A stretch of DNA of 64,000 nt from a virus (IMGVR_UViG_3300045999_008055); one strand, 5' to 3'. Positions 19,173 to 63,217 are shown, numbered from the stretch's first letter. Translations and numbers: made by a program. Notes: generated by a model not told the origin, from the sequence alone.

Positions 19173-19853
19173 TTAATGAATATCTATATCGCCATTATAT
19201 AAATGTTTTTTTACTTTAACTATAATTATCTTTTTTATATTTTTAATTTGTTTATATCCAGCAATTCTATTCTTCTCACTTGTTCTATAACCCATTAATT
19301 TTGCAGTTTGCTCTTCATCTTTACCTTCAATATATAAATATTTATAAACTTTCCATTCAATCGGTTTTAAAACTTTCTCCATCTTCTTATGTATATTCTG
19401 AGCAGTTTCTTCCATATTAAAATTATTAGTTGGCATATCATTGATTTCTTGAGAGTGATTCTCTATGCTAAGTGTCAACTTTGTATCGTGCGCGCTTTTC
19501 TTACTTCTTTCCCAATTAGCGTATAGAGGACACGCATTACATTGCTGTCCGTAAATTGAACAGCCTTCTTCGCTCTCTGCTGCTGCACATTTAAGACATG
19601 GGCGAGTAAAATTACTATAATTATTTCTTATTAAATTTTTAATTTGGTTACTGATAATACGATTAACCCAAGGGGCTAATGGTTTTTTATGATCATAAAG
19701 ATGCCATTTTTTATAAATATGTATTCTTAGTATCTGAGATACATCACTAAAATCCATCCAGTTTATCGCTGTTAAATTCCACTTACTTTTTCTTTTAATT
19801 ATTTCGGAATTTATTACGTCAATTAAGCTTTCGAATGAGGGCTTTTTAGCCAT
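19173..19853 (-). CDS. Phage sigma70-family sigma factor (late sigma candidate)
   Basis: Region-2-like DFSDVSQ..KWHLYD..WVNRIISNQIKNLIR, a Cys cluster insert, and a region-4-like HTH EEQTAKLMGY. Confidence 0.7.
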   Translation of the reverse strand: MAKKPSFESLIDVINSEIIKRKSKWNLTAINWMDFSDVSQILRIHIYKKWHLYDHKKPLAPWVNRIISNQIKNLIRNNYSNFTRPCLKCAAAESEEGCSIYGQQCNACPLYANWERSKKSAHDTKLTLSIENHSQEINDMPTNNFNMEETAQNIHKKMEKVLKPIEWKVYKYLYIEGKDEEQTAKLMGYRTSEKNRIAGYKQIKNIKKIIIVKVKKHLYNGDIDIH

Positions 19854-23596: not shown

Positions 23597-23623
23597 GTAA
23601 GTCGTTGATAATCAATGAAATTT
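23597..23623. repeat. Solitary 27-bp palindrome of the dispersed element
   Basis: GTAAGTCGTTGA-TAA-TCAATGAAATTT, centre 23610. Confidence 0.75.
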
Positions 23624-23649
23624 AAATGCAATAAAAAGCCTAGCATCGC

Positions 23650-23683
23650 TTGACAAATCGTAATAGTGTGATAGATTAAGAGT
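23650..23683 (+). promoter_or_regulatory. sigma70-type leaderless promoter (example of >20)
   Basis: TTGACA-N16-TAGATT with extended TG; ATG 6 nt after the -10 box. Confidence 0.75.
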
Positions 23684-23848
23684 ATGAAAGTTAAAGCAAA
23701 CAAGTTCAACCTAGACGAAACCATCCGCAGACTCAACGCTATCGCAGAAGGCTACAAAGCCTCTGCCCAACGCCTCGACAACATCGTGGCAGAAGCCCAA
23801 GCGAAGAAGGATGAAGCCCACAAAAAGTATATGGGCGAAACCAAATAA
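23684..23848 (+). CDS. Small early protein, family A copy 1 (54 aa)
   Basis: MKVKANKFNLDETIRRLNAIAEGYKASAQRLDNIV...; paralog at 25436. Confidence 0.75.
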   Translation: MKVKANKFNLDETIRRLNAIAEGYKASAQRLDNIVAEAQAKKDEAHKKYMGETK

Positions 23849-23887
23849 CCCTTGACGAAAATCAAACCAGAAAGCAATATAAGCTAT

Positions 23888-24307
23888 ATGAAAAACCAAA
23901 TCACCATCACCAAACAAACCTTCGGCAACACTACCGCTTTCCTCTTGGAAGGCAACAAGAGCCAGATCGAAAACTTCCACAACGCTATGTATAACCATAG
24001 TGCAACCAATGGCGAGTTGCACGATATGGGCAACGGCAAGGCGTTCTACTTCTACGCACAGCCAGAAGCCGTGCTAGAAGCGATGACTAAAGTGGCTCTC
24101 TATGCTCTATGCAATAAGATCAAAGCTAAAGGGATGAAGGGTGGGTTGCTCGCCCTTGCAAGGCAGAAAGCCCAAGACAAGTTCGATGCGATTAAAGATG
24201 GGCGATTCCTTCGCACCAGCATCAGCACCGATGTCTTTAACCTTGGAAGCATCACCGCAGAGAAACCCTCTGACTACTGCGGTGCGATCAGTGCGGGGAG
24301 AGACTAA
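23888..24307 (+). CDS. Early protein, family B copy 1
   Basis: Start re-called to the ATG after promoter TTGACG 23852; F(H/Y)NxxYNxxxTNxxL motif shared with 26370 and 31260. Confidence 0.8.
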   Translation: MKNQITITKQTFGNTTAFLLEGNKSQIENFHNAMYNHSATNGELHDMGNGKAFYFYAQPEAVLEAMTKVALYALCNKIKAKGMKGGLLALARQKAQDKFDAIKDGRFLRTSISTDVFNLGSITAEKPSDYCGAISAGRD

Positions 24308-24308
24308 A

Positions 24309-24686
24309 ATGACCGCAGAGATTCTTGTTATAGCTTTGACCATCCTTGGCGAAGCACGAGGCGAAGGCTTTGAGGGAATGGCGGGTGTTGCGTCTGTCAT
24401 TCAGACACGAGCCATCGAGCGAAAGCAAACGCCCACACAAGTCTGCCTTGCACCAAAGCAATTCAGCTTCTGGAATGGTGGAGTGAGTGAGGCGAAGAAG
24501 CAGGAGCTTCTAAAGAACCCTCAAGCACCCAACGCCATCCGTCTCGCTAAACTTGTAGCAGAGAAACGAATGCCCGATGTTGTGCAGGGTGCGAACCACT
24601 ACCACACCTTCCAAGTGTCGCCCAAGTGGTCAAGAGGAGAGCAGACTGTCGCAGTAATTAAGAATCACAAGTTTTACCGCTTGTAA
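24309..24686 (+). CDS. SleB/Hydrolase_2-like cell wall hydrolase
   Basis: TILGEARGE..VASVI..QFSFWN..GANHYH..PKW..HKFY; start re-called to ATG 24309. Confidence 0.85.
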   Translation: MTAEILVIALTILGEARGEGFEGMAGVASVIQTRAIERKQTPTQVCLAPKQFSFWNGGVSEAKKQELLKNPQAPNAIRLAKLVAEKRMPDVVQGANHYHTFQVSPKWSRGEQTVAVIKNHKFYRL

Positions 24687-24723
24687 GACTTGACAACAAC
24701 GAAAGGTATGATAAGCTAAAGAT

Positions 24724-25119
24724 ATGACAAACAATAATCCAATCAAACGAGCGATCCTCATCGATCCATTCACCGAAACCATCATAGAGGTTAAGATGGT
24801 AGACACTAAAATCCAAACTATCTACGCACTCTTGGGATGCGATGTGATAACTATGACAGGCCTTGCAAATGGAATTGATATGATTCTAGATGACGAAGGC
24901 TTGCTAAAAGACAGCGAGAACCAAGCATACTTTAAGTTTGGCATCGCTTCGCAACCTTTCGCTGGAAAAGCTCTGATCGTTGCAACAGATGACGAAGGAG
25001 ACTTTGCATCTCTGCCAGAAAAAGTTTCAGTCGAAAAAATAAACGACAAAGTCATCTTCTTTAAACCCTCCAAAAAAACTTTAGAAGAATCTCTAAAAAT
25101 AAAAATCACACCATTCTAA
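24724..25119 (+). CDS. DUF3846-like protein
   Basis: AILIDP..IYALLGC..LDDEGL..FAGKALI pattern; own promoter at 24690. Confidence 0.65.
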   Translation: MTNNNPIKRAILIDPFTETIIEVKMVDTKIQTIYALLGCDVITMTGLANGIDMILDDEGLLKDSENQAYFKFGIASQPFAGKALIVATDDEGDFASLPEKVSVEKINDKVIFFKPSKKTLEESLKIKITPF

Positions 25120-25130
25120 AAGCAGCCTCC

Positions 25131-25206
25131 GTAAGTTGTTCAGTATCAACGACTTACGTGGGGCGGGGGGGCTGTCTTTATAAGTGCCTAATAATCAATC
25201 ACTTGC
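25131..25206. repeat. Paired-palindrome element 1
   Basis: Centres 25144/25193 (49 bp; spacer contains a G run). Confidence 0.85.
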
Positions 25207-25291
25207 GAATGCTGATCTTGGAACAAAACCTGATGGAATGCAAAAGATCAATGTCTGATCTTTTCAACTTTGAGTCTTAAACGCAGAAAAC

Positions 25292-25366
25292 CGAAAGCGT
25301 TGACTATCAACTACTTGAACGGAGGGCCTCCCTTGCGTTGTAACTCGTTGATGGTCAATGAAATTT
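25292..25366. repeat. Paired-palindrome element 2
   Basis: Centres 25305/25353 (48 bp). Confidence 0.85.
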
Positions 25367-25435
25367 AAATGAAGATTTTTCTTGCGAAAAATGAAAAATG
25401 TGATAGATTAAAGGTAGAAAGAAAGAAGAAAAAAA

Positions 25436-25582
25436 ATGAAAACAAAAATCAAAATCAAATTCGACATCAATGAAACAATCAAACGCCTTGAGGAAATTTC
25501 CAAAGGCTATCAAGATTCCGCAAAACGGATGGAAAAAATCATCGTCAAAATGGACGAAATCGAAACTCTTAAGAAAGGATAA
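25436..25582 (+). CDS. Small early protein, family A copy 2 (48 aa)
   Basis: MKTKIKIKFDINETIKRLEEISKGYQDSAKRMEKII...; upstream DNA also resembles copy 1. Confidence 0.75.
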   Translation: MKTKIKIKFDINETIKRLEEISKGYQDSAKRMEKIIVKMDEIETLKKG

Positions 25583-25586
25583 AAAA

Positions 25587-25781
25587 ATGATAACAATAAA
25601 TCCCGAACTATACGAAAACAAAGACCTCTACATCTACGAAGGAATGCTAGTCAAAATATTCCCTTCTACGATTGGTTGGAAAACAAGAACCGCAACCGCT
25701 GAAATTATGGATGGCCCTGATAAGGGTAAATGGACTACCATTTATCTTCGCAAGGGTATTCAAGCCGTTGATGCTCAATAA
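25587..25781 (+). CDS. Hypothetical protein
   Basis: Start re-called to MITINPELY, after the family A stop. Confidence 0.65.
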   Translation: MITINPELYENKDLYIYEGMLVKIFPSTIGWKTRTATAEIMDGPDKGKWTTIYLRKGIQAVDAQ

Positions 25782-25825
25782 GAAATAAAAGTTGACAAAA
25801 TCAAAAAATCTGATAGGATAAAAGT

Positions 25826-26116
25826 ATGAAAGATAAGAACAAAACAATGCAACCCGAAATCGGAACCTTCTACCTCTTGACCAATGACAGGACGAAAACT
25901 CCTTGGCTTCAGCCCGAAGAAATCCTTTATGTGAAAGACGAAAACACCTTCATCAAAATCAGCGTTAGCCAAGGTGCAGGATATTCCTCTCGCTGGGATT
26001 GGGCAACCGAAAACGCTGTGACCATCACGAAACTCGCAACGAATAAACATCTCTTGGATCAACTCAACCTCTCGGTTGAAATTGGCAGAGACATCGCCAA
26101 AGCAGAAGGAGTCTAA
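25826..26116 (+). CDS. Hypothetical protein
   Basis: Leaderless promoter TTGACA at 25792. Confidence 0.75.
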   Translation: MKDKNKTMQPEIGTFYLLTNDRTKTPWLQPEEILYVKDENTFIKISVSQGAGYSSRWDWATENAVTITKLATNKHLLDQLNLSVEIGRDIAKAEGV

Positions 26117-26120
26117 AAAA

Positions 26121-26258
26121 ATGAAAAAGATTCTTTTCCAAATAAATAAAAAAACTTTTCGTCTCGCAGTTTCTCACGGCGAAAAGAAAAACTTTTTGCG
26201 TGAAAGATTTTTCTACTATGTTTCTGCGAGTTGCTTGAATCTCCGAGACCTATTGTAA
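26121..26258 (+). CDS. Hypothetical protein (45 aa)
   Basis: Its stop TAA is the first TAA of element 3. Confidence 0.55.
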   Translation: MKKILFQINKKTFRLAVSHGEKKNFLRERFFYYVSASCLNLRDLL

Positions 26259-26329
26259 GTCTCTAAGCATCAACGACTTACAGACGAAGGGAAGCCCCCC
26301 GCGCAAGTCCTTGACTATCAACGACTTAC
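26255..26329. repeat. Paired-palindrome element 3
   Basis: Centres 26268/26316 (48 bp). Confidence 0.9.
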
Positions 26330-26369
26330 ATAAGCTTGACAAAAAGAAAATTTTTGCTATTCTCTTTTT

Positions 26370-26735
26370 ATGCAGAATAAAATAAAAATCTTTATGGAAC
26401 CTTTTGGCCCTAACCTCGCCTATTTAATCGAAGCAGATTTCCCATCTGCTGAAAGATTCTATAATGCAATTTACAATTTCGGCGGAACCAATTATAAATT
26501 ACAAGATCGTGGAAGCGGAAAAGCGTTTTACTTTTATGCCGAACCAGCAAAGTTTCGCAGGGCTTTATCTCTCGCACTCGCCACGAATCTCGAATCATCT
26601 TTTGCTCAAGGTGATTGGAACTCTCACGCAGAAGCATTGGCAGATCAAATAATTTCAGAAATAAAACCAGCAACTTTTGTAAGGCGTTGTCATTCAATGG
26701 AATATTCTTGCAGAAAATCTTTGACAGAATCGTAA
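26370..26735 (+). CDS. Early protein, family B copy 2
   Basis: GxGKAFYFYAxP shared with 23888; promoter at 26336. Confidence 0.8.
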   Translation: MQNKIKIFMEPFGPNLAYLIEADFPSAERFYNAIYNFGGTNYKLQDRGSGKAFYFYAEPAKFRRALSLALATNLESSFAQGDWNSHAEALADQIISEIKPATFVRRCHSMEYSCRKSLTES

Positions 26736-26754
26736 TCTGTGATACATTACCTAT

Positions 26755-26979
26755 ATGAACCAAAACGACATATCCTACCTAGCCTCGATTAACTGCACCG
26801 AAGCCTTTGCTGATGCGGAAGCATTCTTCGATTACATCAACTCCGCTGATGCCATCAACGAGATGCTCGACAAGATGGCTCCCTCTTACGATGAGAGGGA
26901 TACCGAGGTCACCAACTTCTTTGGCGCTAAGGCTGTTCCTTTTCGCCTCACCTGTCAGAATGCAATGGAGGTCAAATAA
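26755..26979 (+). CDS. Hypothetical acidic protein
   Basis: Promoter TTGACA at 26721. Confidence 0.75.
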   Translation: MNQNDISYLASINCTEAFADAEAFFDYINSADAINEMLDKMAPSYDERDTEVTNFFGAKAVPFRLTCQNAMEVK

Positions 26980-26980
26980 C

Positions 26981-27253
26981 ATGGACTACAAAGCCTCTCT
27001 CAAGGAGTGGATGAACCAGCACATGCTGACTCGGTTAGATGTGCGCGACATCCTTAACGAGATGACGCGTGATGACGAGCGCATCCTCGCATCTTCTCAA
27101 TCTAACCTCTCGGATGTGGACGAATCGATGGATGGCGACTTCGATTCTGCTATGGCTTCTGCAGGTCACGGCACAGACGAAGACTATGGTGGCGGGTGCT
27201 ACCAGATGGAAGACTTCGGTTGGGCTGGTGATCCAGAAATTTGTGGAGAATAA
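26981..27253 (+). CDS. Acidic hypothetical protein
   Basis: Start re-called to MDYKAS after GGAGG; tail DESMDGDFDSAMASAGHGTDEDYG. Confidence 0.75.
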   Translation: MDYKASLKEWMNQHMLTRLDVRDILNEMTRDDERILASSQSNLSDVDESMDGDFDSAMASAGHGTDEDYGGGCYQMEDFGWAGDPEICGE

Positions 27254-27255
27254 TT

Positions 27256-27372
27256 ATGATTGAAAAATATATACTCGCAATCGCTGGACTTGGAATTTTT
27301 TTCCTTGCTCTAGCTCTATTAGAAACCCTTATTAACTTTGGCCTCTGGCTTTGGGAGCGTAAGCGTAAGTAG
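27256..27372 (+). CDS. Small membrane peptide (38 aa)
   Basis: MIEKYILAIAGLGIFFLALALLETLINFGLWLWERKRK; stop lies inside element 4. Confidence 0.6.
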   Translation: MIEKYILAIAGLGIFFLALALLETLINFGLWLWERKRK

Positions 27373-27439
27373 TTAACTATCAACGACTTACGGCGGCGGG
27401 GAGGGCGCCCTCGTAAGTCCCTGACTACAAAAGACTTAC
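27365..27439. repeat. Paired-palindrome element 4 (point of convergent transcription)
   Basis: Centres 27378/27426 (48 bp). Confidence 0.9.
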
Positions 27440-27451
27440 GAAGATTAAGTT

Positions 27452-27670
27452 TTACATAGACGCTCGCCAACCCTCAAAAAATTCATCTATCTCTCTTTCT
27501 TTTTGCAAAAAAGTTTTGTTTGAATCTAGAGGAGGATTATCGTTATCGCTCCACGGATAAAAAGTTTCAAGATTTTCGTTTAATAGTTTTTCGATGTTCA
27601 TTTTTGTTTGTTTAGGATTAATGTTAGAATTATCGCCGAGGTTAGAATTGTTAAAAGCATAAGACGACAT
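27452..27670 (-). CDS. Hypothetical protein
   Basis: Start uncertain (27670 or 27601). Confidence 0.5.
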   Translation of the reverse strand: MSSYAFNNSNLGDNSNINPKQTKMNIEKLLNENLETFYPWSDNDNPPLDSNKTFLQKEREIDEFFEGWRASM

Positions 27671-27671
27671 C

Positions 27672-28307
27672 TTAATGCTTTTTGTAGTTAATTGCAAACT
27701 CATTCTTATGCCAGCATGCACGGCACGAACCGCACTTGTTTCCTTGTTTCGATGAAGGGCAATTAAATTCTCCCTTGTTGCTCGCACCGCTAACACAAAG
27801 GCCAAGGCGTTCTGCTAACCCAACCGGTGCGGGGCCATTCATCATAAGAGCAGAGAGACGGATGGTAAGATTAAAAGGAACTTCACCGCCCTTGGCTATA
27901 TACTCTGAAACGAAAGAGTATTCACGAGTAGGCAACCAAAAAGAAATATGCGGAAGATTCTTTGCAACTTTGACAATCTTTTCGAGATGCCAAATACCTT
28001 GCAAATCTCCCGAATCGTGCCAACGGAAGTGAGGGTTGTTTGCTTTACCAATAAGGTAAGTCATCGCATCCACCCAAAGATCGTGAGTAAGAGAAGCAAA
28101 ACGCTTTTCCATCGCAGCTTGAACATTGGGGAAAACATAACGCCCTTTAAGAGCATAGCAGAAAGCACAAATGCTTCCCGCAACCTGACGCATTTTTTGC
28201 CCGATAATGCAACGCTTCGCTGGCGTTGAATAAGCATAACCTGGCATCTTCGAGGGTTTAGATAGTGTGCCGACAATAGCTTCGGCTTGCTTTTTGTTTT
28301 TGAACAT
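27672..28307 (-). CDS. GP88-like Cys-rich (Fe-S/radical-SAM-like) phage protein
   Basis: LSKPSKMPG..C..CAFCYA..FRWHDSGD..FWLPTRE..C..C..CRACW. Confidence 0.75.
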   Translation of the reverse strand: MFKNKKQAEAIVGTLSKPSKMPGYAYSTPAKRCIIGQKMRQVAGSICAFCYALKGRYVFPNVQAAMEKRFASLTHDLWVDAMTYLIGKANNPHFRWHDSGDLQGIWHLEKIVKVAKNLPHISFWLPTREYSFVSEYIAKGGEVPFNLTIRLSALMMNGPAPVGLAERLGLCVSGASNKGEFNCPSSKQGNKCGSCRACWHKNEFAINYKKH

Positions 28308-28356
28308 AAAATTACTTTATCAGTTTTTTTTCTTGTGACAAGTTTTTTTTGCAGTT

Positions 28357-28431
28357 AAATCTCGTTGAGTATCAATGACTTACAACCGTAAGGGCCCCGC
28401 TTGCCTAAGTTGTTGAGACTTAAGCAGTTAC
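28357..28431. repeat. Paired-palindrome element 5
   Basis: Centres 28370/28418 (48 bp). Confidence 0.85.
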
Positions 28432-29259
28432 AGTTTCTTCTTCTGGAATCTCTTCGGTTTCTTTTTTACCAAGGAAAGCGTCAAATCTTTTTTGAGCTTT
28501 GCTCGAAGCCGAAATAATAAAGTTCATATCTTTTTTCAAAACTTGGAGCCAACTCGAAAGATAGCTCGCAGAATTGTTGAAACATTTTTCAGAATCAATC
28601 CCACAAAAGTTAAGACAAAGACTCGCAAAAATCTCTGCGGTCAATTCCTCTTTGCTATAATTCTCTGAACCAAATCCATTTTTGATATCATCATTGGTTG
28701 CCTTGTGCATAGCGTGACCAATTTCGTGAAACGCTGTGGAATAATACTCCTCAACGCTGTTGAAGTTTTCTTTCTCGGGCAGATCAATCTTATGTTCCTG
28801 CGGGTAATAGCAGGCACGGCTTCCACCATACTTGATCTTGATAATGCACTTGTTTATCAACTTCTCTGCTTCTTCTACTGGAGAAAATTCCAGCTTCTTA
28901 ACTTCGGGCTGTTTCCACTTTAGCCCCTCGACATCGCTCAAACCAAAGACTCTGTAATAACGCATCATCGGAAAGCTTTTGGTTTCATTGTCTTTCTCAG
29001 ACTTCAATAGTTTGTAATAAACTACCATATGCGACTTTGCCCCAGTTTTGATCTTTCCGCCAAGTTCTTTAATCTGATTAAAGGTAAAGAAAAAATCATC
29101 CGATGAAACCATCCGAAGCAAAAACTGATTGATGCCCCGATAATTCTTTTTGGAAACGCCGTTGCAAAGATCAAAAACTTTCCAAGGTTTCTGCCAAGGG
29201 CAAACGCCTTTGTTGAGGGCTTCAATGAATTTTTCTGTGATGATTTCGTTAACTTTCAT
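28420..29259 (-). CDS. ardC: ArdC-like anti-restriction ssDNA-binding protein with zincin-like domain
   Basis: PWQKPW..YRGIN..TFNQIKELGG..ACYYP..AFHEIGH..YSKEELTAEI..SASYLSSW. Confidence 0.88.
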   Translation of the reverse strand: MKVNEIITEKFIEALNKGVCPWQKPWKVFDLCNGVSKKNYRGINQFLLRMVSSDDFFFTFNQIKELGGKIKTGAKSHMVVYYKLLKSEKDNETKSFPMMRYYRVFGLSDVEGLKWKQPEVKKLEFSPVEEAEKLINKCIIKIKYGGSRACYYPQEHKIDLPEKENFNSVEEYYSTAFHEIGHAMHKATNDDIKNGFGSENYSKEELTAEIFASLCLNFCGIDSEKCFNNSASYLSSWLQVLKKDMNFIISASSKAQKRFDAFLGKKETEEIPEEETVTA

Positions 29260-29298
29260 AGTTTAAATATATCAGAAATTATCTTTTTGTCTACAAAA

Positions 29299-29373
29299 GA
29301 ATCTCATTGAATATCAACGATTTAGAACCGCAGGGACCCCGCTTCTGTAAGTGCTTGATACTAAAAGACTTAG
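29299..29373. repeat. Paired-palindrome element 6
   Basis: Centres 29312/29360 (48 bp); overlaps the tRNA-Glu 3' end. Confidence 0.85.
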
Positions 29374-29442
29374 GGCTAAACGGATTCGAACCGATACACC
29401 CTCATTGAAAGCGAGGAGTCCTAACCATTAGACGATAGCCCC
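29371..29442 (-). tRNA. tRNA-Glu(TTC)
   Basis: Cloverleaf; anticodon arm CCTCG-CT TTC AA-TGAGG; GTTCGAATC T loop. Confidence 0.9.
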
Positions 29443-29526
29443 AATATGTAGTATTATTATATTAAGTATTTAGCTATTTAGCAATTATTATTTGCTATTT
29501 TGTGTAATCTAATTTAGAATTTAGAT

Positions 29527-29709
29527 ATGAACTCAAAAGTCAGCGGTCTATTAGAATCATCTGCATTATATAAACAATTCCTCAAAGAACGAGAAGAGAT
29601 ATTAAAACATAAATGGCTTGAAAGTGAGAAAGCTGGACACGATGTTGGTTTTGAATGGGCTCTATTAGATTGGAACTTCAATCACAGAAACGGCTGGCGT
29701 AATAAATAA
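29527..29709 (+). CDS. DUF4032-like small protein
   Basis: EILKHKWLESEKAGHDVGFEWALLDW; GTGTAA upstream. Confidence 0.7.
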   Translation: MNSKVSGLLESSALYKQFLKEREEILKHKWLESEKAGHDVGFEWALLDWNFNHRNGWRNK

Positions 29710-29837
29710 TTCTTCCGCTCTCTCTGCTCTAGAATCAAAGAGAATATATTCCCACCTTTAATTGCCTCAGACTCTGGGCATTGGGGCTTCAAGGGCTCTT
29801 ATGGAGGAAGTCATCCTCACTCCTTGCGGAAAGAACT
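29708..29837 (-). ncRNA. Candidate ~130-nt structured ncRNA
   Basis: Own promoter TTGACA(29871)-N16-TAGGAT; predicted 5' end pairs with the 3' end; three internal helices; no ORF. Confidence 0.6.
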
Positions 29838-29871
29838 TCCACTATCCTATAATAAATTACTATTTTGTCAA

Positions 29872-29907
29872 ATAAAAAAGGCGAGGATTTTACTCCTCGC
29901 CCTTTCT
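29872..29907 (-). terminator. Intrinsic terminator
   Basis: AAGGCGAGGA-N6-TCCTCGCCTT with a U-tract on the minus strand. Confidence 0.8.
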
Positions 29908-29925
29908 ATAAGTATCTCTCTGTTG

Positions 29926-30192
29926 TTAAACTGGCGAGAGACCTCCAGCGATCCGATCATAACGGAACTGACGCACGCCAGAATCCATACGACCAGAGAA
30001 GCAAAAGCTCGTAAAGAGTTTGTTGCCAGCCTTACTCGTCCTAAAAGAACTAGGCTTGCTGATGATGTAGGTGAAAACCTGTTCACCGCCGTAGGGTTTG
30101 TATTCGATTAGATACCTCTGTCCCAAAATAAATAGGACAAGATACTTGATGTAGGTGACTGCATATACGATTGCATTTTTGATTTTGTTCAT
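29926..30192 (-). CDS. Hypothetical protein (WYL-like C-terminal RQFRYDRI)
   Basis: Leaderless promoter TTGCAG 30226; terminator downstream. Confidence 0.7.
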   Translation of the reverse strand: MNKIKNAIVYAVTYIKYLVLFILGQRYLIEYKPYGGEQVFTYIISKPSSFRTSKAGNKLFTSFCFSGRMDSGVRQFRYDRIAGGLSPV

Positions 30193-30231
30193 AAGATAAT
30201 CATACCATAACTTCGTTTTACTGCAAGAAAA

Positions 30232-30306
30232 ATATCTCGTTGACTATCAACGACTTACGCGGCGAGAGTCCCCGCCGATGTAACTACTTGATAATCAAAG
30301 GCTTAC
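30232..30306. repeat. Paired-palindrome element 7
   Basis: Centres 30245/30293 (48 bp). Confidence 0.9.
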
Positions 30307-30316
30307 AAAAGTTAAA

Positions 30317-30478
30317 TTATTCTTCTGATTCTTTCCAATTGGGATGCGCTTTAGCCCACTTAACGAAAACAACTTCCAACTCTGCCAAATATTTTTCTAT
30401 TTGAGCAATGAGTTTAGGATCTTCGTCTTTGAGAACTCTTTTCTCTAATATCTTGCTGATTCTATTCTCGGGCTTCAT
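30317..30478 (-). CDS. Hypothetical protein (53 aa)
   Basis: Manually translated MKPENRISKILEK... Confidence 0.6.
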   Translation of the reverse strand: MKPENRISKILEKRVLKDEDPKLIAQIEKYLAELEVVFVKWAKAHPNWKESEE

Positions 30479-30705
30479 ATATACTATTTTACAGTAGCAT
30501 GTAGATTATTTCAATATTTTATTTATGCTATGATAATTATTGGGAAAAGTTATTTTAGATGTGTAATTATAATTTTCGAAAGCTCTATCAATACTCCCCA
30601 CGATATACTCCCACAAATCATAACAAGAAAAATCCACCAAAAATTTCTTTCAAACCATCTCACATAGAAACTTTACATAAGAAAAAATCTTTTGGGAAAA
30701 ATTCT

Positions 30706-30779
30706 CGCTTTCAGCAGGGATCGAACCTGCAACCTACGGATTAGAAATCCGTTGCTCTATCCAATTGAGCTATGAAAGC
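30706..30779 (-). tRNA. tRNA-Arg(TCT)
   Basis: ACGGA-TT TCT AA-TCCGT; full cloverleaf. Confidence 0.92.
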
Positions 30780-30781
30780 GA

Positions 30782-30857
30782 TGGTCGCCTAGGTCAGACT
30801 CGAACTGACACTATAACGATTTTAAGTCGTTTGCCTCTGCCATTGGGCTACTAGGCG
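30782..30857 (-). tRNA. tRNA-Leu(TAA), short variable loop, encoded CCA
   Basis: AACGA-CT TAA AA-TCGTT; 5-nt variable loop. Confidence 0.9.
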
Positions 30858-30864
30858 GATTGTT

Positions 30865-31260
30865 TTAGCTGTCAGTATCTAACTTTTCAGCCGAAACTTC
30901 TCCAAGCGTATAAGTTGGTTCGATCTGTGCGGTGCGAACAAAATTCTCAACAGGAATCTTGCTGATTGTATTCCGCACACGATTCATAACAACTTCTTTC
31001 ATTCCACCTTTACGATTGCGGAATTTCAAACCAAACTTATCTGTCATACCATTCATAACATACTTAAACATCACTCGCTCCAACTTCTCAAAGGTAATCC
31101 AGAAATAAGCAAAGTCATCTGCCATCCATTGAAGCTCGCCGTTTGTTCCACCCCAATTATAGACACGATTATGGAACTGCTCGATTTTATCCTTGGAACC
31201 TTTAATTCCAATAACCCAATGAGCGCCGAGGTTTTGTTTATATAATTTGATTTGTCTCAT
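30865..31260 (-). CDS. Early protein, family B copy 3
   Basis: IEQFHNRVYNWGGTNGELQ..FVRT..LGEVSAEK matches 23888. Confidence 0.8.
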   Translation of the reverse strand: MRQIKLYKQNLGAHWVIGIKGSKDKIEQFHNRVYNWGGTNGELQWMADDFAYFWITFEKLERVMFKYVMNGMTDKFGLKFRNRKGGMKEVVMNRVRNTISKIPVENFVRTAQIEPTYTLGEVSAEKLDTDS

Positions 31261-31417
31261 TTTTTCTGATTCTCCTTTTGTTTTCTGCTCTTGCTTTGAA
31301 GTATGCCTTAATATCTTCTTCTGTCAATTCTGTATGTTTTGCATAGCCATTAAGCATCCAATGATAAGTGGGTGCGACAAGGTGGCTATCCTTAATAATG
31401 TCATAAGTTTGTTTCAT
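31238..31417 (-). CDS. Hypothetical protein (59 aa)
   Basis: Manually translated; promoter TTGACA at 31452. Confidence 0.6.
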   Translation of the reverse strand: MKQTYDIIKDSHLVAPTYHWMLNGYAKHTELTEEDIKAYFKARAENKRRIRKNETNQII

Positions 31418-31471
31418 TGTTTTTAGTTTAACAGGTTTTGCTTTTTTGTCAAGGGTTTTCTTAAACTTTTT

Positions 31472-31544
31472 TGGATCGTGTAGGACTCGAACCTACAACC
31501 TATTGGTTAAAAGCCAACTGCTCTACCAATTGAGCTAACGATCC
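31472..31544 (-). tRNA. tRNA-Lys(TTT)
   Basis: GTTGG-CT TTT AA-CCAAT. Confidence 0.92.
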
Positions 31545-31552
31545 GAAAGTCT

Positions 31553-31625
31553 TGGGCCTGATAGGATTCGAACCTATAACCAAAGGATTATGAGTCCTCT
31601 GCTCTAACCGTTGAGCTACAAGCCC
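31553..31625 (-). tRNA. tRNA-CAT, probably Ile2 (lysidine type)
   Basis: GAGGA-CT CAT AA-TCCTT; GGGCTTG/CAGGCCC-A acceptor resembles Ile2 and lacks initiator features. Confidence 0.85.
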
Positions 31626-31631
31626 AATAAA

Positions 31632-31859
31632 TTAAGCCGCTGAAATCTCCGTTGGAAATTCACTAGGCTCTGGAACGAGCTTGAAGGCCACATTAAAAGC
31701 CTTGCTGATCCTGTAAAGATCCTGCAAGCTGTATGTGTTCTGTTTGGTTGCTTCACGGATTCGAGCATCCATAATGTAAGCCCTACGCTCACCAAAGATC
31801 ATCTTGGTATAGTAAGGAGTCCACTTAGGAGCTTCCCAGTTTGAGGTTTTGTTTGTCAT
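31632..31859 (-). CDS. Hypothetical protein
   Basis: Start re-called to MTNKTS, 34 nt from TTGACT 31893. Confidence 0.7.
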   Translation of the reverse strand: MTNKTSNWEAPKWTPYYTKMIFGERRAYIMDARIREATKQNTYSLQDLYRISKAFNVAFKLVPEPSEFPTEISAA

Positions 31860-31898
31860 AGGTTTAATATACAATAGTTTGATAAATAGTCAACAAAA

Positions 31899-31925
31899 AT
31901 AATTGGTTGAATATCAACGATTTAC
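31899..31925. repeat. Solitary 27-bp palindrome
   Basis: TAATTGGTTGA-ATA-TCAACGATTTAC, centre 31912. Confidence 0.7.
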
Positions 31926-31937
31926 ATATAATAAGAT

Positions 31938-32031
31938 TGGTACGAGGGGCAGGATTCGAACCTGCATTTTGCCCAAATCTAGAGCGACCACATTATAAGT
32001 GTGGGGTCTTAACCAGTTAGACGACCCTCGC
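31938..32031 (-). tRNA. tRNA with TAT anticodon (Ile by anticodon) and long variable arm, encoded CCA
   Basis: CCACA-CT TAT AA-TGTGG; ~22-nt variable region; 7/5 acceptor/T stems. Confidence 0.85.
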
Positions 32032-32067
32032 ATCACCTAGCCCGTAGCTAGTGTCAGCCTCCGATCT

Positions 32068-32238
32068 TTAGGCTTTCTTTTCCGAGCCAATCTTTTTGAT
32101 TACGACCTTCGTGCCATCAGGCCATGCACGAATAACCTTCCGCCAAAATTCAGCTTCTGCTTCAGCTTCCTTTAGGTCAGAGTGCATATCCTCGCTAACA
32201 CGAATACCATCACGCAGAACGATATATCTTAAATTCAT
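32068..32238 (-). CDS. Hypothetical protein (56 aa)
   Basis: Manually translated MNLRYIVLRDG... Confidence 0.6.
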   Translation of the reverse strand: MNLRYIVLRDGIRVSEDMHSDLKEAEAEAEFWRKVIRAWPDGTKVVIKKIGSEKKA

Positions 32239-32465
32239 TCTTCTACCTCCACGGCGATTTCATTATCAAATAGTGAGCCACCATCAACCTTGTCGCAGAT
32301 AACGATGTCATTACTGCCATCATCACCAGCATACACGGCACGAAGTTTCTTTACTTGACTATACTCTTTTTTAGTCCATTGACTCTCTGGAACGCCGAGG
32401 ACTTGCAGAGCCTCAACTCTCTCTGGAGGGATCGCCTCTCCACTTACTGCACAATGATAGGTCAT
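32235..32465 (-). CDS. Degenerate TraR/DksA-like protein
   Basis: CAVSGEAIPPERVEAL resembles CxxCGxxIPxxRLxA; start re-called. Confidence 0.5.
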   Translation of the reverse strand: MTYHCAVSGEAIPPERVEALQVLGVPESQWTKKEYSQVKKLRAVYAGDDGSNDIVICDKVDGGSLFDNEIAVEVEE

Positions 32466-32496
32466 AGTTGTGATTGTAATATGTTTTTTTATTCTG

Positions 32497-32856
32497 TCAA
32501 GCGATTTTGCGAGGACGACCACGACCACGCTTTTCACCGCTAGGCAGAATTGATGTTGCATTATAGTTTGTTAGTTTCTCCTGCAATTCACCGAAACGCT
32601 TGTTGGCATCTTCGATGCTAGTGCAAGTGAAAGCCCAATCGCCCCATTGACTATCGCTAGGATACATTTCAGCGGGAGGCATCTTTACGCCAGCGATCTC
32701 ATAACCATTGTGACGCTTGATTGCGATAACTTCATAATGATAGTTTTCACATTCGGGGTCATCGAGTTGTTTTTTGTAGATAGCGATGTCGCCATCACGC
32801 TTTACCTGCTGAAGTTTGAATCCTTTAGAAGTAAAAGATTCTTCAAGAATTTTCAA
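32497..32856 (-). CDS. Hypothetical protein with C-terminal AT-hook
   Basis: YPS..QWG..AFT core, KRGRGRPRK tail; TTG start inferred. Confidence 0.65.
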   Translation of the reverse strand: MKILEESFTSKGFKLQQVKRDGDIAIYKKQLDDPECENYHYEVIAIKRHNGYEIAGVKMPPAEMYPSDSQWGDWAFTCTSIEDANKRFGELQEKLTNYNATSILPSGEKRGRGRPRKIA

Positions 32857-32998
32857 TTTTAGTTCCCGCTGGAAGCCAGTTTTTAGGGTCAAGGTTTTCC
32901 CCAATATAACCAACTTGGGTTTCGGTTTTAGTTTTAGGGTCAGTAGCGTAAATAGCATAGCCACCTTCAGCCAGCTTCTTTACTTTAGTGATGTTCAT
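32843..32998 (-). CDS. Hypothetical protein (51 aa)
   Basis: Manually translated MNITKVKKLAEGG... Confidence 0.55.
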   Translation of the reverse strand: MNITKVKKLAEGGYAIYATDPKTKTETQVGYIGENLDPKNWLPAGTKIENS

Positions 32999-33023
32999 AT
33001 GATAATTATAGTATACTTTTAGA

Positions 33024-33362
33024 TTAATTCAAGACAAAAATTTCACGACCAATAACGCCAGCCCATTTAGCTTTATATACAGGACGCTTGGTGTCAGCAT
33101 AAACAAAACTATGATACTTATAGGGATTATAGGTTACTTGCCGCTCTCCATGAATAGGCCAACCTTCGTCTGGTGTGCCACACACAAAAGCGTGGACATT
33201 CTTACGCTTTTCTTTTAAGACTCGGTTTCTGCCAGCTTGACTCACACGAAACTCAACATCTTTCAAAAAGAACTCTGAGCTATGTTGGAGGACTTTGCCT
33301 TTAAGCATAATACTCAAACAATGTTTATGTAAGTTATAATAGACTTTGTGTTTTGCTTTCAC
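33024..33362 (-). CDS. Conserved phage hypothetical protein
   Basis: VYYNLHK..KNVHAFVCG..TYNPYK. Confidence 0.75.
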   Translation of the reverse strand: MKAKHKVYYNLHKHCLSIMLKGKVLQHSSEFFLKDVEFRVSQAGRNRVLKEKRKNVHAFVCGTPDEGWPIHGERQVTYNPYKYHSFVYADTKRPVYKAKWAGVIGREIFVLN

Positions 33363-33402
33363 TCCCTTAACTATAAGATAAATTCTATAAATGTCAAGGT
33401 TT

Positions 33403-33477
33403 ATAAGTGCTTGATAGTCAACGACTTACAACGGCGGGGTCCCGCGCACCGTAAATCCTTGATAGTCAACAACTTAC
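33403..33477. repeat. Paired-palindrome element 8
   Basis: Centres 33416/33464 (48 bp). Confidence 0.9.
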
Positions 33478-33495
33478 AACTCATCGAATTTAGAC

Positions 33496-33525
33496 AAAAA
33501 GAAGCGGGGGATTTACCCCCGCCTC
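33496..33525 (-). terminator. Intrinsic terminator
   Basis: GCGGGGG-ATTTA-CCCCCGC plus U-tract. Confidence 0.8.
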
Positions 33526-33546
33526 GGTTAAGGTTTTGGTTTTAGT

Positions 33547-34404
33547 TTAGGCGACCAGTTTCAAGAGGTCTTCGTCACGGGTCTTGCCGCTGAAGACTTT
33601 GAGCAGGTCACGGTTGACACGCTCGCTGTACTCGTAGCGCTCTTGCGAGACATTGCGAGTCAGGAACTGAGTTGCCGCATTATAAAGGTTATACAGATTG
33701 CGATCCGTATCCTCCTCATAAGCGGGATTGCGCCAAACAGCCTCGATCCCCTCACGCACCTTGCCGGAGATAATGTCTTTCTCTTCCAGCTTGGTGAGCA
33801 GGTTCAAGCCCTGTTCGTTAGTGAGAGCCTTCTGCGCCAGTTTATTGAAAACTTGCGCCGAAGATTCTACGCTGTCACAAGCATGAGCCAATGCATCACC
33901 AACGAAGTCGAGATTGACAGCAAGCGTGTGGCGCTTCGTCATGCTGAACTCCTTGGTAAGCGAGGTCATACCGTTCTCGCAGATGAGACGAAGGAAGCCG
34001 AGAGACAACGAAACACGAGTTGAGCGGTCATAACTGTTGTTAACGACCAGCCGCAACCCAAGAATGTCACCCTTGGCTCGCTTGCCCACGGGCTTCAATT
34101 CCGTTTTGAAATCGGTGAAGTCGTAGGAAGCGTAGAAACGAGCGCCGTCACGCACGACGAACTTCTTCGAGGTAAAATTCGAGAGTTTGTCATGATTGGC
34201 GAGGTTGGTTTCCACCATCTCGATGAGGTCTGCATTTTTCACCACACCATACTGCTCGGTGCAAACTCCGAGTGTAATGGGTTCGGCGGTGTCACGGCGC
34301 ACCATGCCGAAGTATCCTGTCCTCTTGCCGTCAGTTGTGAGGAGTGGCTCTTGGTGTACATCGAAATCGTATACACTTTGAGCGGGTTTGGTTTGTCTTG
34401 CCAT
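33547..34404 (-). CDS. DUF932/LGT_TIGR03299-like protein
   Basis: LG..YGVVKN..NSYD..RLICENGM..RHT..LYNLYNAAT. Confidence 0.8.
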   Translation of the reverse strand: MARQTKPAQSVYDFDVHQEPLLTTDGKRTGYFGMVRRDTAEPITLGVCTEQYGVVKNADLIEMVETNLANHDKLSNFTSKKFVVRDGARFYASYDFTDFKTELKPVGKRAKGDILGLRLVVNNSYDRSTRVSLSLGFLRLICENGMTSLTKEFSMTKRHTLAVNLDFVGDALAHACDSVESSAQVFNKLAQKALTNEQGLNLLTKLEEKDIISGKVREGIEAVWRNPAYEEDTDRNLYNLYNAATQFLTRNVSQERYEYSERVNRDLLKVFSGKTRDEDLLKLVA

Positions 34405-34511
34405 AAAATAATCATACCATACTTTTAACTTGTGACAAGAACTTTTTTCATCTCATAAGATACTGCTAGCCAGCGGGTTGCCTATCCTGTTAAAAATAAA
34501 TACTATCATAC

Positions 34512-34586
34512 GTAACACCTTGATTATCAACGACTTGCGCGCGCGGGGAGCCCGCCGCCCTAACTATATAATAATCAACAACTTAT
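34512..34586. repeat. Paired-palindrome element 9
   Basis: Centres 34525/34573 (48 bp). Confidence 0.85.
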
Positions 34587-35035
34587 GTCAATTGAAATTT
34601 AATATTACTCTTTCTATACTCTCTTACTTTCCTTATAGCATATAATGTAGCATCTACTTCACTTAATTTAGCTTTAGTTCCCATGTTGTATTTTCTTATC
34701 TTTTTAATACCATGATAAAATTTATTCTTTTTATATTGCCATAGGTGTCTTACTTCATGGGCTATAATATCAACCAAAGACTCTTCCCAATTATATGTTT
34801 TAAGAGGTAAATATCCCCTCTCGCCTCCACTAATATATGGTTTAACATACTTAGAATAAGCTGGAACTCCAATATGCACACGACCACTATACCAAGCCCT
34901 ACCATGCCAACCTAATTTAGTATTACCAAAATCTATTTTTCTAATATCTTTAAGGTGCAATCCTTGAGGGAGACACCATTTAATAATTTCTTTTAGTTTA
35001 TCAGAGCAATATGAGGTAGTATTAATGAGCTTCAT
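34583..35035 (-). CDS. Zincin-like (HExxH) protein
   Basis: IIAHEVRHLWQ..SEVDA. Confidence 0.65.
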   Translation of the reverse strand: MKLINTTSYCSDKLKEIIKWCLPQGLHLKDIRKIDFGNTKLGWHGRAWYSGRVHIGVPAYSKYVKPYISGGERGYLPLKTYNWEESLVDIIAHEVRHLWQYKKNKFYHGIKKIRKYNMGTKAKLSEVDATLYAIRKVREYRKSNIKFQLT

Positions 35036-63129: not shown

Positions 63130-63217
63130 TGGAACGAGTAGGATTCGAACCTACGGATGATATTGAACCATCGGAAGTTTAGTAAACTTCTGCTTTAGAC
63201 CACTCAGCCATCGTTCC
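63130..63217 (-). tRNA. tRNA-Ser(ACT), class II
   Basis: GAAGT-TT ACT AA-ACTTC; long variable arm; GGA acceptor start. Confidence 0.85.

Follow-up and report, generated by a model that had tools for sequence, protein, structure and literature searches.

What kind of signal is carried by a palindromic pair that recurs at one gene boundary after another in a phage? The question is raised by the region 23597..34586 of the window, by which we mean the whole stretch of 64,000 nucleotides analysed, belonging to an 84.6-kb phage record. This cassette island, with a GC content of 0.38-0.44 against about 0.31 for the backbone, carries the palindrome P either alone or as P-S-P elements. It covers 11 kb of small, accessory genes of the anti-defence type, in an uncultured lake phage.

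A paired-palindrome array confined to an island

P is a 27-bp palindrome of consensus GTAAGTCGTTGA-N3-TCAACGACTTAC, present in about 20 copies in the 84.6-kb record while 0 are expected by chance. With at most 3 mismatches to the 27-bp consensus we obtained 7 matches, all within 25131-33477 (0.00 expected from 100 shuffles). When the entire record was scanned with the half-site, every good copy fell within 23597-34586, with just isolated half-sites of 2 mismatches outside; the initial annotation had likewise seen no other copy in the window.

At a cut-off of 7 mismatches out of 24, P centres are called for two solitary copies, at 23610 (23597..23623, 5 mismatches) and 31912 (31899..31925), and for elements 1 (25131..25206, centres 25144/25193), 2 (25292..25366, centres 25305/25353, with 7 and 6 mismatches), 3 (26255..26329, centres 26268/26316), 4 (27365..27439, centres 27378/27426), 5 (28357..28431, centres 28370/28418), 6 (29299..29373, centres 29312/29360), 7 (30232..30306, centres 30245/30293), 8 (33403..33477, centres 33416/33464) and 9 (34512..34586, centres 34525/34573). 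The second P of elements 1 and 9, at 25193 and 34573, are degenerate and fall just beyond this cut-off, with 8 mismatches each; the tally is thus nine pairs, seven clean and two with a decayed partner, besides the solitary copies. Each element is a 75-bp unit in which two P surround a GC-rich spacer (S) of fixed length. The P-to-P spacing is 48 bp, or 49 bp in element 1, and the successive pair-to-pair distances from element 2 to element 7 are 963, 1110, 992, 942 and 933 bp. Every pair, solitary copy, spacing and distance first listed is confirmed. The spacer contains G-runs then C-runs; the loose self-complementarity initially ascribed to it compares with that of shuffled versions (mean MFE -9.43 vs -9.04 kcal/mol, p=0.07).

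This architecture is shared by at least 55 IMG/VR phage contigs, which carry 226 distinct pairs within a GC-richer cassette island; over these 55 loci 625 sites are found, against 5 in shuffles. This spread, like the IHF-type half-sites and the helical phasing to promoters described below, had gone unnoticed in the initial annotation. The spacing is sharply bimodal, with 88 pairs at 48 bp and 119 at 50 bp, the others being at 49 bp (15) or 51 bp (4). Besides the record itself (G000), we considered three complete relatives (G001-G003) and a fourth that is 86% complete (G004): the sites are restricted to one GC-richer cassette island in G001, G002 and G004, and to two islands in G003.

The five successive window intervals of 933-1110 bp had suggested a periodic nucleoprotein scaffold or some structural mark of the first-injected DNA with no bearing on transcription, which a binder able to bend DNA might also fit. 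Over the family, however, the 204 pair-to-pair intervals range from 44 to 4777 bp (median 1068 bp, CV 0.62), so that the distance tracks cassette size, and the phasing described below is to promoters, not from element to element. We give hardly any credence to such a scaffold.

Palindrome symmetry and the candidate binder

The conserved geometry had been attributed to a protein-bound or an extruded structure. Among 409 distinct P sequences, no variation occurs at A3 and T10 or at the positions that mirror them, and the two halves form 104 non-consensus Watson-Crick pairs, against 106.3 expected. P1 does not pair to P2 either, their complementarity being 88 against 127.7 expected. On these counts we rejected the extruded cruciform or hairpin, and retained from the proposal a protein-bound site of conserved geometry. 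The absence of covariation in the P halves, together with that of P1-P2 pairing, argues for a site read by a symmetric DNA-binding protein; P is predicted to be such a site, and neither an RNA nor a DNA hairpin.

Could the element nevertheless work as RNA, with three hairpins that stabilise the mRNA, end transcription without a protein factor or form an RNase III-type processing site? Elements lie between genes, many of them right after a stop codon (the median distance past the upstream gene is 43 bp), a 12-bp stem is possible from each P, and the PeSL stem-loops with their polyG/polyC tracts are terminators (PMC2839356). We yet consider this very improbable: no compensatory stem changes occur in the 409 distinct copies, the spacer folds no better than its shuffled versions, and 42 elements lie between divergent genes, where transcription is not required. 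Moreover the strand-oriented consensus shows no T-run after the element, and a canonical intrinsic terminator (33501..33525, minus strand) stands after the DUF932 gene, upstream of element 8, which sets the terminator apart from the element. The processing hairpins evoked in the initial annotation meet the same two objections, the lack of covariation and a terminator that can precede the element. In Rfam only tRNAs reach the threshold, and up to E = 1 no family covers any part of the elements; the literature search gave no described family that corresponds to them, in agreement with the earlier impression of an undescribed family.

Which protein could bind P? P1 and P2 share 189 identical non-consensus bases in register, against 102 expected, and lineage-specific variants, e.g. 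GACTTAC vs GAGTTAC, are common to P1 and P2 and to the sites within one genome. Co-evolution with a phage protein would produce such a pattern, and P might then be the operator of a phage-encoded regulator, such as a repressor shutting off early genes, paired for cooperative binding. The restriction of the sites to the phage island and a single bacterial species goes in the same direction, as does the conservation of a sigma-like and a zinc-ribbon protein beside the arrays. On the other hand we recognised no HTH, RHH or HU protein conserved within the arrays or next to them, the small RHH-looking paralogues (23684-23848 and 25436-25582) being present in the closest relatives only; a site centred near -54 leaves the core promoter uncovered; and the bacterial sites, discussed below, have no phage homology nearby. 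The phage regulator is thus a possible but rather doubtful binder.

A host factor is what the comparison with IHF and with a bacterial chromosome points to. In each P half the conserved bases, TCAA, four bases and TTA, most often with an A in front, are those of the IHF consensus WATCAAnnnnTTR (bioRxiv 10.1101/382655), a sequence match that was noticed post hoc; the half-site consensus aTCAAcGAcTTAc is found in nearly all of 51 loci. Besides, the Verrucomicrobiota chromosome G111 contains 20 P palindromes (0 with the reversed-pattern control). They are intergenic, mostly in divergent-promoter gaps, near argS, dnaA and glycosyltransferase genes, in surroundings without homology to the phages. 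This location in promoter-type gaps suggests that the binder of P could be a host factor. G111 itself need not be the host, because its GC content is about 0.55-0.59 vs 0.31 for the phage. Multiple P sites were found in 1 of the 401 Verrucomicrobiota sampled; among 15 members of the genus none other gives a P match at 2 mismatches or fewer, and one of 60 family members has a single site. A conserved host IHF would leave the absence of P in the close relatives of G111 unexplained. HU/IHF genes are not discriminating in this respect, with 5 in G111 and 3-5 in its relatives; none (PF00216) is found in the phage record, its three complete relatives or G004.

Promoter phasing and cassette exchange

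Next to an outward sigma70-like promoter, the distance from the centre of P to the -35 box is 19, 29, 39-40, 50 or 60 bp. Over the family the distances cluster at 19 bp (17 cases), 20 bp (5), 29 bp (5), 38-41, 49-54 and 60-61 bp, a helical phasing (Rayleigh p ~2e-9 at a 10.5-bp period) that keeps an unchanged phase once the 19/20 class is removed (p = 0.0035). Promoter-like sites favour the side of the element that faces a gene start (18/59 vs 3/59; 13/52 vs 3/52), and a strict matrix detects a sigma70-like promoter on about 25-35% of these sides. The 48 and 50 bp spacings between paired P are, for their part, non-integral helical turns.

Counting the solitary copies, 9 of the 11 elements of the window have an outward promoter, seven called by a tool (P 23610, P 31912, elements 3, 5, 6, 8 and 9) and two by eye (elements 2 and 7). 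Five are at 19-20 bp. On the minus strand these are the promoters of P 31912 (31893-31866), element 6 (29293-29266, for the ArdC gene), element 7 (by eye, -35 at 30226) and element 8 (33397-33370, for an L5 gp82-like gene), all at 19 bp; on the plus strand, that of element 3 (26336-26363), where 20 bp separate the P centre from the -35 box. Element 5 has a minus-strand promoter (28341-28314) 29 bp from the centre, for the GP88-family gene (27672..28307, minus strand) between elements 4 and 5. The plus-strand promoter of P 23610 lies downstream of it (23650-23677), the weak one of element 2, also plus, is about 37 bp from 25353, and a minus-strand promoter (34591-34563) overlaps the degenerate P of element 9. 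Element 4 has no adjoining promoter; it stands where plus-strand genes (to ~27372) and minus-strand genes (from ~27452) converge, as had been remarked from the outset.

Promoter control is not the sole role of the elements, since 33 of 186 elements classified lie between convergent genes without a promoter. Our favoured reading, to which we attribute a probability of about 0.6, is that the island is a hyperplastic early/accessory gene region in which P-S-P serves as a regulatory boundary module bound by a protein. A symmetric, dimeric and sequence-specific protein would bind each P. The promoter-proximal P, on a fixed helix face upstream of a host sigma70-type promoter and most often centred at about -54, would let the bound and probably DNA-bending protein act on RNA polymerase, whether by activation or by insulation, while the transcription unit before the element may be closed off by the distal P together with the rigid, GC-rich spacer. 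The binder would most likely be host-encoded, with an IHF/HU-type architectural protein as the leading candidate.

Such a module could also serve the exchange of genes. The cassettes include, on the plus strand, a Hydrolase_2 gene (24309-24686) and a DUF3846 gene (24724-25119) and, on the minus strand, a DUF932 gene (33547..34404, with its own promoter at 34438-34411) bracketed by elements 8 and 9; with 23 loci, DUF932 is the most frequent family among the cassettes of related arrays. An ArdC-type cassette (ArdcN and a zincin peptidase; 28420..29259, minus strand) is bounded by element 5, whose distal P overlaps the ArdC stop codon, and element 6, which abuts a tRNA-Glu. At the corresponding place the relative L001 has a single element and no ArdC cassette. 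Similarity breakpoints show an overall 2.75-fold enrichment in elements, or about 2.1-fold when the reference is the rest of the intergenic DNA; of the 16 clean indels, 9 start or stop within an element, elements making about 6% of the sequence, and the other 7 contact none. These observations bear out a junction for cassette gain and loss like that of PeSLs. The module, being present at every cassette boundary in many related phages, supplies about 75 bp of homology, and ordinary recombination would probably be the route of insertion, deletion and exchange, as with PeSLs.

The same observations might instead evoke a dedicated system of site-specific recombination or transposition, attC-like as in integrons or REPIN/RAYT-like: cassette-sized units are bounded by elements, relatives differ by “element, cassette, element” against a single element, the geometry is kept while the spacer sequence drifts, and most adjacent elements share their polarity (58/81 and 94/120 adjacent pairs). 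But neither a tyrosine integrase (PF00589, a profile positive in 14/14 control genomes) nor a Y1/RAYT transposase (PF01797) is found in the record, the three complete relatives or G004, P lacks hairpin covariation, neighbouring elements are as unlike as distant ones, 7 of the 16 clean indels miss the elements, and promoters lie inside the cassettes themselves, with a phasing unexpected for recombination sites. Such a system is improbable; the initial annotation was right in reporting no integrase, which weighs, with the cassettes' own promoters, against the attC-like shuffling it envisaged.

A bolder and quite tentative extension of the boundary module is that P-S-P is a portable “adaptor”, a putative symmetric site at which a nucleoid or architectural protein of PVC-group host bacteria would dock with high affinity. 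If true, this clade of lake phages would place P-S-P before every accessory (anti-defence) cassette; a cassette carrying it would therefore be expressed at once on entry, insulated, and exchangeable between co-infecting phages. Recombination from element to element would then resemble that of integrons, without an integrase, at sites read by a host chromatin protein.

Relation to known composite elements

The closest known system is the PeSL (promoter-early stem-loop) cassettes of T4-type phages (Arbiol et al. 2010, PMC2839356; Comeau et al. 2014, PMC4122927). PeSLs and P-S-P are both short composite motifs at nearly all gene boundaries of a hyperplastic region, coupled to sigma70-like early promoters, with a block of G-runs and C-runs, and both are places where relatives differ by insertion, deletion or replacement of a cassette. 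However, a PeSL joins a promoter and a stem-loop at variable positions without conserved flanking palindromes, whereas P-S-P has a rigid spacing of 48/50 bp between two sequence-specific palindromes of 27 bp, no hairpin covariation and a helical phasing to the promoter, in a lineage that is not T4-like.

As for IHF, sites such as lambda H' and H1 present the same consensus bases at the same spacing as each P half, and a 27-bp site upstream of promoters, as in IHF-assisted promoters, would fit an architectural bending protein. IHF sites are nevertheless asymmetric, with a one-sided consensus; both halves of P carry it in head-to-head orientation, an arrangement that would be suited to a homodimer, and the phages bearing P encode no HU/IHF homologue in the genomes searched.

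The BIME (RIP) elements of E. coli combine REP palindromes with an IHF site. They are scattered genome-wide, with GC-rich REPs on either side of the IHF site in their centre, and RAYT transposases are associated with them. BIMEs and P-S-P are alike as intergenic palindrome composites of fixed architecture with an IHF-type site, and the chromosomal P+Q composite of G111 is BIME-like in general kind. The order is inverted in P-S-P, where IHF-type palindromes flank the GC block, in one island and without RAYT. The attC sites of integrons require the integron integrase, fold as single-stranded DNA with covarying arms and usually bound promoterless cassettes; P-S-P likewise bounds gene cassettes, with a conserved geometry and a variable centre, but differs on the three points tested, having no integrase, no covarying arms, and cassettes with promoters.

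Finally, the stoperators of cluster A mycobacteriophages are single asymmetric sites of 13-14 bp that follow the direction of transcription and to which the prophage repressor binds. P-S-P differs by its paired palindromes, in phages without integrase. As with P, for which protein binding is predicted, stoperators occur in many copies in the short intergenic gaps of one phage, and mycobacteriophage-family genes (GP88, L5 gp82) are found among the cassettes of the island.

A paired palindrome confined to a cassette island

The parent record of the window is an 84.6-kb IMG/VR phage, 52% complete according to CheckV, with terminase, portal, RIIA, ligase and clamp-loader in its gene set. GC is about 0.31 in the backbone versus 0.38-0.44 across 23597-34586, whose genes are short cassettes of the plasmid- or phage-establishment type: Hydrolase_2, DUF3846, a GP88-family gene, ArdC with a zincin peptidase, an L5 gp82-like gene and DUF932, plus six tRNAs. 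ArdC, DUF932 and DUF3846 are typical counter-defence and establishment genes, the class that evolves fast in the arms race between phage and host. The island also holds three copies of a 121-138-aa family without Pfam match (23891-24307, 26370-26735 and 30865-31260) and two of a 48-54-aa protein with a ribbon-helix-helix look; these paralogous cassettes differ in GC, which suggests that similar cassettes were acquired repeatedly. A tRNA-Ile with anticodon TAT (31938-32031) is atypical and unusually long (94 nt); at 63130-63217 lies another atypical tRNA, which has anticodon ACT and is assigned to Ser.

The 27-bp palindrome P, GTAAGTCGTTGA-N3-TCAACGACTTAC, is restricted to 23597-34586, with no copy in the rest of the window or of the record; the chance expectation is zero copies. 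On re-measurement, the palindrome coordinates and pair distances of the initial annotation were correct: nine pairs, 48 bp apart in eight and 49 bp in one, and two solitary copies; in two of the nine pairs one partner has decayed. Each pair (P1 and P2 around a GC-rich spacer) forms an element of about 75 bp, numbered here in window order.

A search for the exact paired pattern finds 55 IMG/VR loci, whose contigs measure 4 to 172 kb; the P sites in these loci total 625, versus 5 after shuffling. Distances between consecutive P sites peak in these loci at 48 (99), 49 (15) and 50 bp (157); once duplicates are removed, 226 distinct pairs are left, 88 at 48 bp, 15 at 49, 119 at 50 and 4 at 51. In four relative phage genomes, three complete (G001-G003) and one 86% complete (G004), the P sites fill a single region of 7-16 kb, except in G003 where they fill two. 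The arrays adjoin the same backbone block, with genes for PhoH, zinc-ribbon and sigma-like proteins, ERCC4 and terminase, and in most loci the arrays are higher in GC than their flanks. Compared by distant blastn with 50,697 phage records, the region matched in tRNAs only. The paired module provides a simple sequence tag to find such islands in metagenomes. As for the rhythm of about 1 kb noticed in the window, it merely reflects cassette size, since the distance from pair to pair varies family-wide from 44 to 4777 bp (median 1068 bp, CV 0.62).

Half-sites of the palindrome: sequence or pairing

The initial annotation had envisaged, among other readings, an extruded structure, attC-like recombination sites or RNase III hairpins. 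Across the 409 distinct P sequences compared, the two halves form 104 non-consensus Watson-Crick pairs, versus 106.3 expected under independent variation, and A3, T10 and their mirror positions are invariant. Between P1 and P2 there is no pairing (88 versus 127.7 expected); the variants common to both in direct register are 189 versus 102. Length and GC-richness of the spacer are maintained, but it folds no better than shuffled spacers, and no Rfam model matches the element. Because of this lack of covariation, of P1-P2 pairing, of a spacer fold and of an Rfam match, together with the invariant positions, the half-sites of P are conserved for their sequence and not for pairing. Such a pattern is typical of a symmetric DNA-binding protein, for which P is the predicted binding site. 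Conservation of this kind speaks against cruciforms, attC-like folded strands and RNase III hairpins.

Promoter phasing, gene boundaries and cassette exchange

Sigma70-like promoters are about twofold enriched in the island (42 versus 23±4 by chance), and across the family promoter-like sites occupy the side of the elements that faces a gene start. Measured from the first T of the -35 box to the nearest P centre, the distance is 19 bp for elements 6 (P centres 29312/29360), 7 (read by eye) and 8 (33416/33464) and for the solitary P at 31912, 20 bp for element 3, 29 bp for element 5 (28370/28418), 37 bp for element 2 (also read by eye) and 41 bp for the solitary P at 23610. Family-wide, these distances cluster at 19/20, 29, 38-41, 49-54 and 60-61 bp, with a period of 10.5 bp (Rayleigh p ~2e-9; without the 19/20 class p is 0.0035 and the phase is unchanged). 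Given this clustering, the proximal P has its centre near -54 or an integral number of turns farther upstream, on a single helix face. In element 9 (34525/34573) the second palindrome, which is degenerate, is overlapped by a strong promoter-like site on the minus strand (34563-34591, 11/12 matches) that would read through this element into the DUF932 unit.

Elements also lie between convergent genes (33 of 186), they often start within a few tens of bp after the upstream stop codon, and a canonical terminator stands ahead of element 8. These three observations show that the element is a boundary module, more than a promoter part. The whole element is intrinsically polar (about 13 bits), and neighbours have the same polarity in 72-78% of cases. 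A rigid, sequence-specific boundary module would explain how the island genes are switched on jointly.

According to gene-family maps, DUF932, GP88, ArdC, DUF3846 and L5 gp82-like cassettes recur across the 55 loci, each bracketed by elements, in an order and company that partly differ between loci. Where the window has element 5, ArdC and element 6, locus L001 has a single element aligning to both; L045 carries a different cassette at the ArdC position, and L011 an extra mini-cassette flanked by two elements. Similarity ends in elements more often than expected, 2.75-fold overall and about 2.1-fold relative to other intergenic DNA, and 9 out of 16 clean indels start or stop inside an element. 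Neither an integrase nor a RAYT transposase was found in this record, the three complete relatives or G004. Duplication upon insertion was rejected, because neighbouring elements resemble each other no more than distant ones do, and the same holds for their spacers. The simplest reading would be homologous exchange at the shared 75-bp module, as in the promoter-early stem-loop (PeSL) cassettes of T4-type phages (PMC2839356, PMC4122927), functionally the closest known system. PeSLs, however, lack the rigid sequence-specific pair of palindromes, its 48/50 bp geometry and the helical phasing, and the element-bearing phages are not T4-like. The paired-palindrome module would also explain how island genes are swapped among phages that range in backbone GC from 28 to 47%.

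Candidate binders of the palindrome

The conserved half-site bases of P (usually A, then TCAA, four bases and TTA) match the IHF consensus WATCAAnnnnTTR (bioRxiv 10.1101/382655), so that P reads as two candidate IHF-type half-sites placed head-to-head, an arrangement suiting a homodimer. No HU/IHF gene was found in this record, the three complete relatives or G004. Among 401 Verrucomicrobiota genomes, one of 2.5 Mb (G111) has 20 P palindromes at ≤3 mismatches, versus 0 for the reversed-pattern control. They are intergenic, mostly between divergent genes, and adjoin argS, dnaA, a glycosyltransferase, a pyruvyl-transferase and other ordinary genes without homology to the phages. At 10 of 14 of these sites a second, 21-bp palindrome Q, of the type TACAGCATT-N3-AATGCTGTA, follows at 29-30 or 37-38 bp, and the flanking ORFs, as we read them, place the gene start past Q. 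The P+Q repeats (L066-L080) are upstream of several polysaccharide-synthesis genes and dnaA, among others. These sites show P in use on a bacterial chromosome as well, and this lends a cellular binder some, though limited, support. Should the binder come from the host, it would offer a way to trace the hosts of a large group of freshwater phages that are uncultured.

A serious rival is a regulator encoded by the phage. It stays so because few relatives of G111 have P (0 of 15 other genus members at ≤2 mismatches, and a single site in 1 of 60 family members; the P+Q repeat is found in the G111 species only, among 16 genus members sampled), because the GC of G111 is far above that of this phage, and because the 20 metagenomic stretches returned for the P+Q composite include none with a full P palindrome and are chance matches. 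On the phage side, none of the conserved array-edge families (PhoH, zinc-ribbon, sigma-like, ERCC4, RuvB-like AAA+, SprT-like, GP88) is evidently a sequence-specific regulator. A 48-54-aa protein resembling ribbon-helix-helix, present twice in the island (23684-23848 and 25436-25582), was discarded as P binder: it has no Pfam support and is confined to the closest relatives. The phage sigma-like protein (19173-19853) has a weak Sigma70_r2 match and is conserved beside PhoH at the array edge in many relatives.

HU/IHF copy number is uninformative (5 in G111, 3-5 in its genus relatives). The paired-motif scan of bacterial genomes gave L056-L059, apparently 48-bp-spaced direct repeats from one Verrucomicrobiia MAG (GC 0.55-0.59), which contain no full palindromes and are chance matches; L060 is a phage fragment of 1.3 kb that was binned into a MAG, and neither result is evidence for a host. 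In another Verrucomicrobiota genome (L062, G055:C29:37244-40270) a single P lies 7 bp past what looks by eye like the 3' end of a tRNA gene, where island or prophage junctions typically occur. Finally, the G111 P sites L066 and L078, upstream of argS and dnaA, adjoin TGTTCCACA-type motifs resembling DnaA boxes, possibly an origin-type or DnaA-regulatory region.
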